Virus record (IMG/VR): IMGVR_UViG_2571042870_000012
Direction: 5' to 3' (one strand)
Source of the DNA: a virus
Lineage: Duplodnaviria; Heunggongvirae; Uroviricota; Caudoviricetes
Length of the DNA: 17,248 nt
Shown: one piece after another, positions 14,738 through 16,830 of the stretch
Layout: each line of letters opens with the position of its first letter
Numbering within the stretch: position 1 is the stretch's first letter
Translations under genes and position numbers: made by a program
The notes under the pieces: model-generated
The model's input: only the letters and a program-made list of their open reading frames with translations
Told to the model about the DNA's origin: nothing
Database searches by the model: none

Positions 14738-14766
14738 ACAGATAAAATAAACCCGCCGAAGCGGGT
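14738..14766 (-). terminator. Rho-independent terminator downstream of hok
   Basis: Hairpin AACCCGC-CGAA-GCGGGTT followed on the minus strand by TTTATTTTATCTGT. Confidence 0.5.
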
Positions 14767-14835
14767 TAAGTGCGGGTGCATTGAGGATGCCTGACACATC
14801 AGAGGTGGCGAGGGATTTCTCCCTCGCCAAGTCTC

Positions 14836-14991
14836 TTACTCCTCAGGTTCGTAGACTGTGAAGACAGCGACCTCCGTCTGGCCGGTTCGGATTCGTACCT
14901 CGCAGAGGTCTTTCCTCGTTACCAGTGCCGTCACTATGACGGTTAAACAGATGACGATCAGGGCGATTAACATCGCCTTTTGCTGCTTCAT
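14836..14991 (-). CDS. hokD: Hok-family type I toxin (51 aa)
   Basis: Translation MKQQKAMLIALIVICLTVIVTALVTRKDLCEVRIRTGQTEVAVFTVYEPEE; AAGGAG 9 nt upstream of ATG 14989-14991. A GC hairpin (14807-14828) follows the stop. The track ORF extends in frame to an ATG at 15048. Confidence 0.85.
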   Translation of the reverse strand: MKQQKAMLIALIVICLTVIVTALVTRKDLCEVRIRTGQTEVAVFTVYEPEE

Positions 14992-15577
14992 AGCCTGCTT
15001 CTCCTTGCCTTTTGGCACGTAAGAGGCTAACCTAGATTTGCCGTTCATAGATTGAGCCTCAGATTAATGTTAAGCGTCTTGCAGGACGCGTAATGTTAAC
15101 TGGGGCTTTTCTCTATCTGCCTTTGGTGTTCATGCCTGAGACAGATAGCCTCAAGCACCCGCAGCCATTCTACTTAACTCCCGTCACCTGGCCAATATAA
15201 AATCAATCAGAAAGGCGATCCATAAGAACAACAGCAAGACAATAAATTGCCATTACAGCTGCAATAGCCAGCGCACATTTGAGAACCAGCACGACAACCT
15301 CCTGTATTGGACGTACACCAGTCCTGATAAATATGAGGCTCTCTCATCATTGATGAGATACAACTATTGGGTATAGTTTCTGTGATTTTGTTCTGTAGAA
15401 ATGGAACACAACAACCAGTAACCACCAGCGATTCTTTAAATACGCCAAATCCGACGCAAGCTAACCTTCTAGTCCGCTTTGGGCGAAGACCGGACGTTCG
15501 ATAGGTGTGAACTAGTAACTTTAAAAACATTTAATTACCAGTAAAAAAACAAGAATATACTATCACTTTTCCAATTT

Positions 15578-16603
15578 TTAATTACCCTTATCAATTTTAA
15601 GAAATACATTTCCAATCTCATCAGAATAATCCTGTATTATTTTTGAAATGACGGCATGATCAATGGTTGGTTTTAAGAATAAAAGTGTCACAGTAATCTG
15701 CATCAAACTAATAGCAGTAGCATGGGCTGGATCAGCCATTCCTGAATCACTTTGCCCGACCAATAATATATCATCACCAGTTTCACAGAGACCAAGCCTA
15801 TTTCTCATTGCCTTGGAACCGGTGTGTACATTCTGACTCGCCCACTTATAATAAGGGCGCATGTGTTCTAACTGAACATCTTTCTCAATAGCTCCAAACC
15901 CCACTTTATTATGGTTAGGGAAAATATAAGATGCCCACCCATAATTATCTGCATATTTTTTGCCGTATTTTTTTATTAATAGATCAAATTGAACTTTACA
16001 CTCAGCTATTTCTTCAATAGTTGGACCTTTTGCTTCTAACCGGTGCTCGTACTTTTTGTGTTCCAACATTCCAGTATATGAATCAACCACTTCATGGTAG
16101 TAAAAGCGCTCAGCACACTCTTTTCCATGCTTTGCTATAAACATAGCTGTGGCTGCTACCTCATGAAGTGCTCGCCATCTCGCTTGGGCAGCATCTGCAA
16201 ATCCATTCTTTAAGAGACACAAAATTTCGTTGGCGATGTGGCAAGCTCTTGCGTGATGCCGAACGACTAAATCAAAAACCACATCCTCTTCAGAGGCAGC
16301 TTGTGGTCTATAAGAACGATTGAACTCTTCACCGGACTCCGTGCATATCACTATAAGTGTTTCGAGCAAATCAAAAGCCTCTGCCCATCTTGAAATATTT
16401 CTCTCAACAAATTCATCACAAAGAGAACGATGTTCTCTAAGCATTGCATTGGCCGAGCCAATAAGAGATTTTTTAACGACAATGGCTATTTTGGGAATTA
16501 GGTTATTAATTTCTTTTTCGATATCAGCGTCACCAGATAAATCAAGTCTCTCTTTTAAAAGGCTGTCTATGTGCTCAAGCAAAATATTATGAAAAGTATC
16601 CAT
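15578..16603 (-). CDS. Hypothetical protein, AT-rich orphan cargo gene (341 aa from ATG; 345 from an upstream TTG)
   Basis: Long uninterrupted ORF with K/E/I/N-rich, low-GC codon usage unlike the flanking genes. No transmembrane segment or motif I can assign with confidence. Flanked by AT-rich non-coding DNA. Confidence 0.7.
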   Translation of the reverse strand: MDTFHNILLEHIDSLLKERLDLSGDADIEKEINNLIPKIAIVVKKSLIGSANAMLREHRSLCDEFVERNISRWAEAFDLLETLIVICTESGEEFNRSYRPQAASEEDVVFDLVVRHHARACHIANEILCLLKNGFADAAQARWRALHEVAATAMFIAKHGKECAERFYYHEVVDSYTGMLEHKKYEHRLEAKGPTIEEIAECKVQFDLLIKKYGKKYADNYGWASYIFPNHNKVGFGAIEKDVQLEHMRPYYKWASQNVHTGSKAMRNRLGLCETGDDILLVGQSDSGMADPAHATAISLMQITVTLLFLKPTIDHAVISKIIQDYSDEIGNVFLKIDKGN

Positions 16604-16830
16604 ATCATATCTCAATAAGTTTTAAATCCATGTGGCACACCCATAATATAAAAATAAACAGCATGCCAGTCTAAGTCTGGCTATTTGTATATCATATCAC
16701 CTGAAACATTGACAGATGTAACCCACCAAAATATTATCAATGACCACTCTTGGCACAAAGCGAACAACCACGCTAGCTCTACCTTGTGCCATGAAAATGT
16801 CAATGCATATCTGAACTAATGCCCTTTAAT

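Follow-up and report, generated by a model that had tools for sequence, protein, structure and literature searches.

The window analysed here, that is, the whole 17,248-nucleotide (nt) stretch of the IMG/VR virus record IMGVR_UViG_2571042870_000012 (Caudoviricetes), carries on its minus strand a 29-codon open reading frame (ORF), hereafter the small ORF, directly upstream of a hok/sok type I toxin-antitoxin locus. We consider it likely that the small ORF is a real gene encoding a membrane peptide with a single helix, tied to the hok cassette of Escherichia lambda-like prophages, and that it is not a separately silenced toxin. Judging from substitution patterns among homologous loci, the 29-codon frame is under selection as a protein, and ribosome profiling (Ribo-seq) provides direct evidence that a member of the same family is translated in uninduced lysogens of the enterohaemorrhagic E. 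coli (EHEC) strain Sakai. We infer that the peptide is made in lysogens, from an mRNA that continues into hok, and that its role is tied to the hok cassette.

A sequence-only reading of the window had proposed a minus-strand GTG-initiated ORF of 29 codons at 15203-15292 with AGGAGG 5 nt upstream, and the ORF is exactly as it was described there. Its GTG (15292-15290; the TGA stop lies at 15205-15203) is the earliest possible start after the in-frame stop. The hydrophobic nature claimed for the product was also borne out, with a grand average of hydropathy (GRAVY) of 1.81, a best 19-residue window of 2.70, and one predicted transmembrane helix at approximately residues 2-24 that is followed by the short charged (acidic) tail DRLSD; the product most probably inserts as a single helix in the inner membrane. 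Taken alone, the pattern of an ORF behind a Shine-Dalgarno sequence is weak evidence. That is, a random window of the same size and composition would be expected to contain 0.44 cases of AGGAGG with a start codon 4-9 nt downstream that opens 29 or more codons; three were observed in this window, two of which are large genes. Therefore, the case for a small gene rests on comparative evidence.

Homologous loci were collected from three sources: the four sequenced phages Tritos, Evi, mEp460_ev081, and HannyBb; IMG/VR contigs retrieved through 19 nt of hok leader sequence, and thus independently of the small ORF; and IMG/VR contigs matching a degenerate pattern inside the small ORF, a larger and partly biased sample. 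Preservation of the frame in such loci had been named beforehand as a check, and both the GTG and the length of 29 codons are retained in 75 of the 77 loci of the window's type, the two exceptions being one stop-loss variant and one decayed copy in which the Shine-Dalgarno sequence was lost (GAAAG) along with the frame (a 2-nt deletion). GGAGG or GGAG stands at the same spacing in all intact copies, including those in five unrelated upstream contexts. The allele changes within the close family (n = 30) comprise 17 synonymous vs. 13 non-synonymous ones, a synonymous share above the chance level of about 29% (binomial p = 0.0014); codon position 3 accounts for 17 of the 30, and all 13 non-synonymous changes are conservative (A/T/V, V/I/L, M/V/I, R/H, L/F, and S/T). 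Codon positions 1 and 2 were variable at 5 of 58 sites in the unbiased, hok-leader-anchored sample vs. 59 of 232 sites in the non-coding flanks (Fisher p = 0.0045), and codon position 3 was flank-like (5 of 29). The larger sample repeats this pattern, with positions 1 and 2 varying about three times less than the flanks and position 3 matching them.

Comparisons with more diverged relatives, in which synonymous sites are near saturation (dS, the synonymous divergence, of about 1.0-1.3), give the same picture. Subfamily B (MSDDISLAMEGALAVIAVVGVYCLVVFLMDRLGN; 34 amino acids (aa), ATG start, GGAGGG) shares 64% DNA identity with the small ORF over 26 codons, and the ratio of non-synonymous to synonymous divergence (dN/dS) is 0.27 in the ORF frame at a dS of 1.27. 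The variant L309, from an Escherichia genome (MLAALKGFVAILAVVAIYCLVVVLMDRLSD), shares 74% nucleotide identity and shows a dN/dS of 0.19, with both alternative sense frames closed; its insertion of exactly one codon is the sole length change between intact copies. Other frames in these comparisons show dN/dS values of 0.9-1.5 or contain stops. That is, the codon-substitution analysis asked for by the sequence-only reading reveals purifying selection in this frame only. Across the family, A9, V13, Y17, C18, L19, and L23 are invariant and the tail L-M-D-R-L is conserved, giving the core ALA..AV...YCL..V.LMDRL.

These data bear directly on the possibility that the frame is not a functional gene, being instead either an ORF that arose by chance and accompanies the hok promoter region, or a short upstream ORF that acts only in cis through its translation, whatever the peptide sequence. 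Such a reading would fit the unexceptional frequency of the Shine-Dalgarno/ORF combination, the young and narrow (Escherichia only) family, and the recombination joints found inside the ORF in 12 of 115 hok loci, which leave its 3' end in place as the surroundings of the hok promoter. It is difficult to reconcile, however, with the low dN/dS values at near-saturated synonymous sites, the conservative replacements, the six invariant residues, the threefold lower variability of codon positions 1 and 2 next to a flank-like position 3, a sole length change that comprises a whole codon, and a promoter and Shine-Dalgarno sequence that are both conserved in unrelated contexts. Hence, we regard this possibility as improbable and favor a protein-coding gene.

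Competing frames and RNA-based readings of the same segment fared no better. The sequence-only reading had suspected that the longer, Cys-rich ORF overlapping the small ORF is spurious, and this ORF indeed fails the coding tests: its dN/dS is 1.5 against subfamily B and 1.43 against L309, in which the frame is closed, its start varies among loci to give anything from 23 to 107 aa, and it shows 17 synonymous vs. 61 non-synonymous changes, seven variants that create stops, and no codon periodicity. Stops interrupt the second sense frame in the subfamily B comparison, and each antisense frame has a stop in at least one sequence. An antisense ORF was considered because one plus-strand frame is open in the window, but this frame has a stop in subfamily B, and the low dN/dS of the antisense frame is attributable to its sharing wobble positions with the sense frame; phage HannyBb is annotated with ORFs on the strand opposite the small ORF. 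An RNA element in place of a gene was rejected as well, since Rfam returned the hok leader only and the fold of the 5' untranslated region (UTR) plus the ORF did not stand out from shuffled sequences (z = -0.8). The ORF had been placed in the hok leader region by the sequence-only reading, which is refuted by the coordinates: the leader model starts at 15160, the hok promoter occupies 15167-15195, and the ORF ends at 15203. Folding of the hok mRNA, raised beforehand as a possible explanation of any conservation, cannot account for the conservation observed because the ORF lies outside the hok transcript, and the folding signal is, in any case, missing. Finally, the small ORF is not recognizable as a truncated Hok paralogue, given that BLASTP against the neighbouring Hok returned nothing at E <= 100 and no Pfam match was obtained at E <= 1.

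Evidence for translation comes from the subfamily B gene of EHEC Sakai, which was listed as XECs145 in the Ribo-seq study of Hücker et al. 2017 (PLoS One 12:e0184119, PMC5597208) and corresponds to ECs_5710 in the current RefSeq, where it is located in prophage Sp6, 188 nt upstream of mok/hok. In lysogeny broth (LB), XECs145 showed an RNA value of 79.1 reads per kilobase per million mapped reads (RPKM), a footprint RPKM of 346.1, a ribosome coverage value of 4.35, and a coverage of 0.99; the corresponding values were 121.3, 150.1, 1.14, and 0.84 in the brain heart infusion (BHI) control and 73.3, 1.1, 0.01, and 0.37 under BHI stress (PMC5597208). The gene was classed as 'real', was predicted to encode an inner-membrane protein with one transmembrane helix (S2 and S8 Tables of that study), and was among the more efficiently translated novel ORFs in growing cells (PMC5597208). 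Accordingly, the ribosome occupancy that the sequence-only reading had named as a check is strong for the subfamily B homologue, a signal that concerns the homologue and not this locus. The Sakai data were obtained from uninduced cultures, in which spontaneous induction in a subpopulation could contribute to the expression.

The sequence-only reading had further likened the peptide to type I toxins in its general architecture, and one could thus hypothesize that the small ORF encodes the toxin of a type I pair distinct from hok/sok, kept silent by a dedicated antisense or divergent small RNA. The resemblance in size and shape to TisB, ZorO, and Ldr (29 aa, one hydrophobic helix, short charged tail) is real, the ORF adjoins a bona fide type I system, and a promoter-like site on the plus strand (TTAACT, 18 nt, TAAAAT; 15174-15203) would give an antisense RNA. 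This site, the sole one found in the search for a plus-strand antisense promoter, is not conserved, however: a usable -10 box (TAAAAT or TATAAA) is present in only 26 of the 77 loci, the rest having TGAAAT or GTGAAAT, and the site is absent from phage HannyBb. No RNA family except the hok leader is reported by Rfam, the locus lacks tandem repeats, and the 5' UTR is only about 30 nt long, with the strong Shine-Dalgarno sequence being conserved and unpaired in the centroid fold. Efficient translation in growing cells would be unexpected for tightly repressed type I toxins, and yet the Sakai homologue is efficiently translated in exponentially growing, uninduced cells. No cognate small-RNA antitoxin was found by computation (Rfam and promoter scan), although one with a non-canonical promoter could escape these searches. 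That is, the RNA partner and the regulation that define a type I toxin were not found, the toxin reading of the architecture is not supported, and we consider a separately silenced toxin very unlikely.

Comparison with the known type I toxins TisB, ZorO, Ldr, Ibs, ShoB, and DinQ leads to the same assessment. The small ORF is like them in length, in its hydrophobic helix, and in its short polar tail, and differs from them in that no cognate small RNA and no long structured UTR or hidden ribosome-binding site was found, no sequence similarity was detected, and the homologue is translated without stress. The surveys of type I toxins do not mention the small ORF.

In the preferred reading, i.e., a translated membrane-peptide gene, translation would start at the GTG at 15292, driven by the strong Shine-Dalgarno sequence, and transcription would come from one or both of two sources. 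The first is a putative sigma-70 promoter of its own with the consensus TTGAAT, 17 nt, CATATT. Unrelated upstream contexts share a -35-like hexamer, a 17-nt spacer, CATATT, and about 30 nt with GTGTACGTC, followed by the Shine-Dalgarno sequence; CATATT is kept even where all sequence further upstream differs, and the spacer sequence differs completely between contexts, only its length and the hexamers being kept. Conservation of hexamers and spacing without conservation of the spacer is the signature of a working sigma-70 promoter, which remains putative in the present case. The hexamer at the -35 position is TTGAAT in 49 of the 77 loci, TTGAAG in 12, TTGCTG in 2, and TCTCAT in 12. The small-ORF promoter matches 8 of 12 consensus positions, which is below the threshold of the promoter scanner, and hence it was not called; transcription is predicted to start near 15323, giving the short 5' UTR mentioned above. 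With its degenerate -35 box, the window's copy of this promoter is probably weak. The second source would be read-through of the rightward early operon, the neighbouring genes being all on the same strand. Because no terminator separates the small-ORF stop codon from the hok -35 box, 8 nt further on, transcripts of the small ORF should continue into hok and stop at the hok terminator.

The association with hok is strict in one direction. In subfamilies A and B, each of the 123 copies that could be evaluated has a hok leader behind it, 103 of the 105 loci carrying the small ORF encode an intact Hok, and mok/hok also comes after the divergent L309 copy. The ORF and hok move jointly among phage backbones with differing upstream genes, which are a DUF5677 gene here and an acetyltransferase gene, an opposite-strand ORF of 449 aa, or a QueH-like gene elsewhere. 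In terms of the model, the nin region of Escherichia lambda-like prophages would carry a mobile 'small ORF + hok/sok' cassette whose left-hand part is the small gene, and this gene would provide an accessory membrane peptide that is made in lysogens and whose usefulness depends on hok. The one-sided dependence, the 8-nt gap, and the missing terminator suggest co-transcription and, possibly, a functional tie.

A stronger version of this tie would have the peptide functionally coupled to Hok, either as a co-toxin, whose mRNA would be a 5'-extended hok transcript and thus under the control of Sok and RNase III, or as a membrane antagonist (immunity factor) that would dampen Hok in lysogens or while the phage itself grows lytically. 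That the ORF never occurs without hok, that hok often occurs without the ORF, that the two move together without a terminator between them, and that both encode single-helix membrane peptides with a conserved Cys would all be in line with such coupling. This evidence is circumstantial, however, with proximity alone predicting the linkage; ORF-less hok loci with an intact Hok are common, so that the partnership is not an obligatory one; the translation start region of the ORF has no complementarity to Sok; and this region is unlike the start region of mok (by eye) and the hok leader (Rfam search). We therefore treat direct coupling to Hok as a tentative and rather unlikely extension of the model, and favor the more general reading of an accessory gene linked to the hok cassette.

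Several observations weigh against our interpretation and should be considered along with the evidence above. With respect to translation, the Ribo-seq evidence is for subfamily B only, which shares about 52-55% protein identity with the copy in the window, and Sakai holds many near-identical prophage copies so that reads may map to several places. With respect to the coding tests, the unbiased sample is small (12-16 haplotypes), the retrieval pattern within the ORF biases some sites of the larger sample toward conservation, and the ORF is short, which makes for modest single statistics (p ~1e-3; codon-position chi-square p = 0.02-0.12). The -35 box of the window is the degenerate TCTCAT, and the small ORF's own promoter may be inactive in this window. 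Further, among the 115 hok loci with this leader type, 83 lack the ORF, 12 retain a 3' remnant, in which a recombination joint inside the ORF has left the last 6-10 codons, and 20 carry the full ORF; given that hok occurs so often without it, the small ORF is not needed for hok/sok persistence. Finally, physical proximity (8 nt) alone could yield strict linkage.

The features of the locus are collected in Table 1.

Table 1. Coordinates of the small ORF, its upstream elements, and the adjoining hok locus (window positions).
Feature	Positions	Strand	Details
Small ORF	15203..15292	minus	GTG start, 29 codons + TGA stop, product MLVLKCALAIAAVMAIYCLAVVLMDRLSD
Shine-Dalgarno AGGAGG	15298..15303	minus	5 nt 5' of the small-ORF GTG
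Conserved motif GTGTACGTCC in the short 5' UTR	15309..15318	minus	variants GTATACGTCA and GTGCACGTCC over five unrelated upstream contexts
Putative -10 box CATATT	15330..15335	minus	in 76/77 loci; inferred from conservation
-35 position	15353..15358	minus	17 nt 5' of the -10; TCTCAT here
Shared block, ~190 nt	15293..15495	minus	common to most loci of the type; holds the promoter; bounded left by a hairpin
Cys-rich 107-aa ORF	15207..15530	minus	overlaps the small ORF in another frame; spurious
hok promoter	15167..15195	minus	-35 TTGGCC 15195-15190, 17 nt, -10 TAGAAT 15172-15167
hok mRNA leader, Sok RNA target	14986..15160	minus	Rfam RF01794 full-length, 109.3 bits, E = 1.5e-25
mok (70 codons)	14836..15048	minus	hok (51 codons, 14836-14991) in the same frame
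hok intrinsic terminator	14750..14767	minus	first terminator 3' of the small ORF

The window sequence is identical to a Qin-like lambdoid prophage of avian pathogenic E. coli (APEC) O78, and the order of minus-strand genes, confirmed by Pfam, is DUF977, DUF5677, small ORF, mok/hok, a 129-aa ORF, DUF968 (ydfU), and antiterminator Q. The hok -35 box follows 8 nt after the end of the small ORF, and the 5' end of the hok mRNA 42 nt after it; the hok promoter core AGTTAAGTAGAAT is kept in essentially all hok loci of this type. No terminator was found in the window between the small ORF and hok; a hairpin flagged within the ORF is weak and would be translated through. The mok frame contains hok, as in chromosomal mokC/hokC, and the gene is named hokD in RefSeq, yet it is unlike the hokD of K-12 in having its own promoter, leader, and mok. 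Antisense to the hok leader (15093-15200, plus strand) is a 35-aa ORF that resembles XECs166, an entry given as 'translated' in the Sakai Ribo-seq catalogue; this signal probably comes from the abundant Sok RNA, not from a protein. The DUF5677 gene (15581-16615, minus strand; Pfam E = 5.5e-34) had no match in PADLOC and is placed outside the conserved cassette because different genes occupy its position in other phages.

Outside the promoter, the shared block upstream of the small ORF is non-coding, evolving at a neutral-like rate with no codon periodicity. At its left edge lies a hairpin (15472-15495, GTCCG...CGGAC) that has 8 perfect base pairs in most other loci and looks like the border of a cargo-exchange hotspot, since the genes to its left differ from phage to phage. 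The window's haplotype, found in 12 of the 77 loci, carries three base changes within 15343-15377 that turn TTGAAT into TCTCAT. The same changes create a palindrome, CTCATCAATGATGAG (15343-15357), and a plus-strand promoter-like site (15350-15377; TTGATG, 16 nt, TATAGT) that points away from the ORF toward the hairpin.

A second family of tiny membrane ORFs (27 aa, e.g., MTWPEAFTTVGIAMAVALVVYSICRWG, 'MTWPEAF...') was observed just upstream of hok in other prophages. It lies outside this window, at 2344-2427 of L308 (EHEC Sakai prophage Sp6), in L020, and in many IMG/VR loci; its ATG overlaps the stop of a DUF551 gene (ATGA), and it is unannotated in Sakai. Denoting this ORF as C, the arrangements found were DUF551-C-hok, DUF551-C-B-hok, and C-A-hok, and for 77 of 113 copies, a hok leader is found no more than 400 nt away. 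A common origin with the small-ORF family was rejected (hhalign probability 1.3%). In L020 and L308, a perfect palindrome, CGATATGGGAATTCCCATATCG, one variant of which has a compensatory change, separates the subfamily B ORF from the hok promoter, and the subfamily B cassette is flanked by near-repeats, GGGTAAAAACG(G)TT(T/C)GC(G/C)GG, which looks like the outcome of an insertion or deletion between the repeats; in loci without the ORF, the palindrome and remnants of the 3' end of the subfamily B ORF persist.

As to how widespread the family is, no significant match to the small ORF was found in Pfam, NCBIfam, PHROGs, or PADLOC, and a profile search of 1.84 billion representative proteins gave 17 matches, all belonging to the same tiny family. 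In a separate search for homologous proteins, the query was the 46-aa stop-to-stop translation around the 29-aa peptide. A scan of one genome per bacterial species returned E. albertii and E. ruysiae and, beyond these, only three short contigs (about 3 kb) from non-enterobacterial metagenome bins (L223, L224, and L226, labelled Collinsella, Scatousia, and Haemophilus); these carry the small ORF and most likely represent binning contamination. The family is thus confined to Escherichia, where the region is present in 1710 of 5426 complete E. coli genomes (~31%). The description of the ORF as unannotated, made in the sequence-only reading, holds for RefSeq genome annotation, in which the 40 genomes sampled show no feature at the matching position; it does not hold for protein records, given that GenBank and RefSeq contain the exact peptide and variants of it as 'hypothetical protein' or 'membrane protein', e.g., GCZ25347.1, and, for the REL606/BL21 variant MLVLKCTLAIVAVMAIYCLVIVLMDHLSD, ACT39199.1 and ACT43394.1. 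No paper was found in the literature for the peptide strings or locus tags. What was known consists of these database entries and one member in a Ribo-seq catalogue, and what is new is the characterization of the family and its link to hok, neither of which has been noted before.

The small ORF resembles the small single-helix inner-membrane proteins that ribosome profiling or tagging has revealed in E. coli and its prophages, such as the XECs set of Hücker et al. 2017, in size (29-34 aa), in its one hydrophobic helix and strong Shine-Dalgarno sequence, and in being usually missed by annotation pipelines. XECs145 belongs to the same family, with the conserved core and the same position directly upstream of hok, and is transcribed and translated in growing lysogens. 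The copy in the window differs from XECs145 in belonging to another subfamily, in its GTG start, and in lacking the MSDD N-terminus; it also has its own promoter block, whereas subfamily B follows the 27-aa ORF and the DUF551 gene, and it lacks the palindrome between ORF and hok promoter described above. The Hok/Gef family (PF01848) is similar to the small ORF in consisting of membrane peptides on the same strand with a Cys in or near the helix; however, there is no sequence similarity, and the small ORF has no periplasmic C-terminal domain and lies outside the hok mRNA. Nor is it an overlapping regulatory frame as mok is.

Prophages also encode so-called 'moron' membrane proteins that are expressed in lysogens, such as DicB of Qin and the superinfection-exclusion proteins HK97 gp15 and lambda SieB. 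The small ORF is like these in being a small accessory prophage gene located among the early genes, with a putative promoter of its own, a predicted membrane protein as its product, and apparent expression in lysogeny, but it is much smaller than DicB, HK97 gp15, and SieB and has no homology to them.

It is intriguing to speculate that prophage hok loci in Escherichia are three-part systems, that is, Hok, Sok, and a 29-34-residue membrane peptide encoded right before hok and co-transcribed into its mRNA, although we view this as a long shot at present. If true, the third component would antagonize Hok, acting as a safety catch at the protein level in the lysogen or during the lytic cycle, or would work together with Hok as a second effector that is released when Sok decays, and the 27-aa membrane ORF that takes this place in other hok loci, though unrelated, would be an analogous partner. 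The one-way association with hok thus raises the question of whether the phage-borne form of this toxin system has an overlooked protein partner, and it bears on how read-through from upstream promoters affects hok/sok regulation. In terms of annotation, gene calls at this locus should include the 29-codon frame and leave out the 107-aa Cys-rich 'hypothetical protein' of many GenBank records. If the gene is real, it would extend the poorly charted small proteome of prophages by another conserved, expressed small membrane protein, and one whose element is carried by nearly a third of complete E. coli genomes, yet whose locus is annotated in RefSeq without it.

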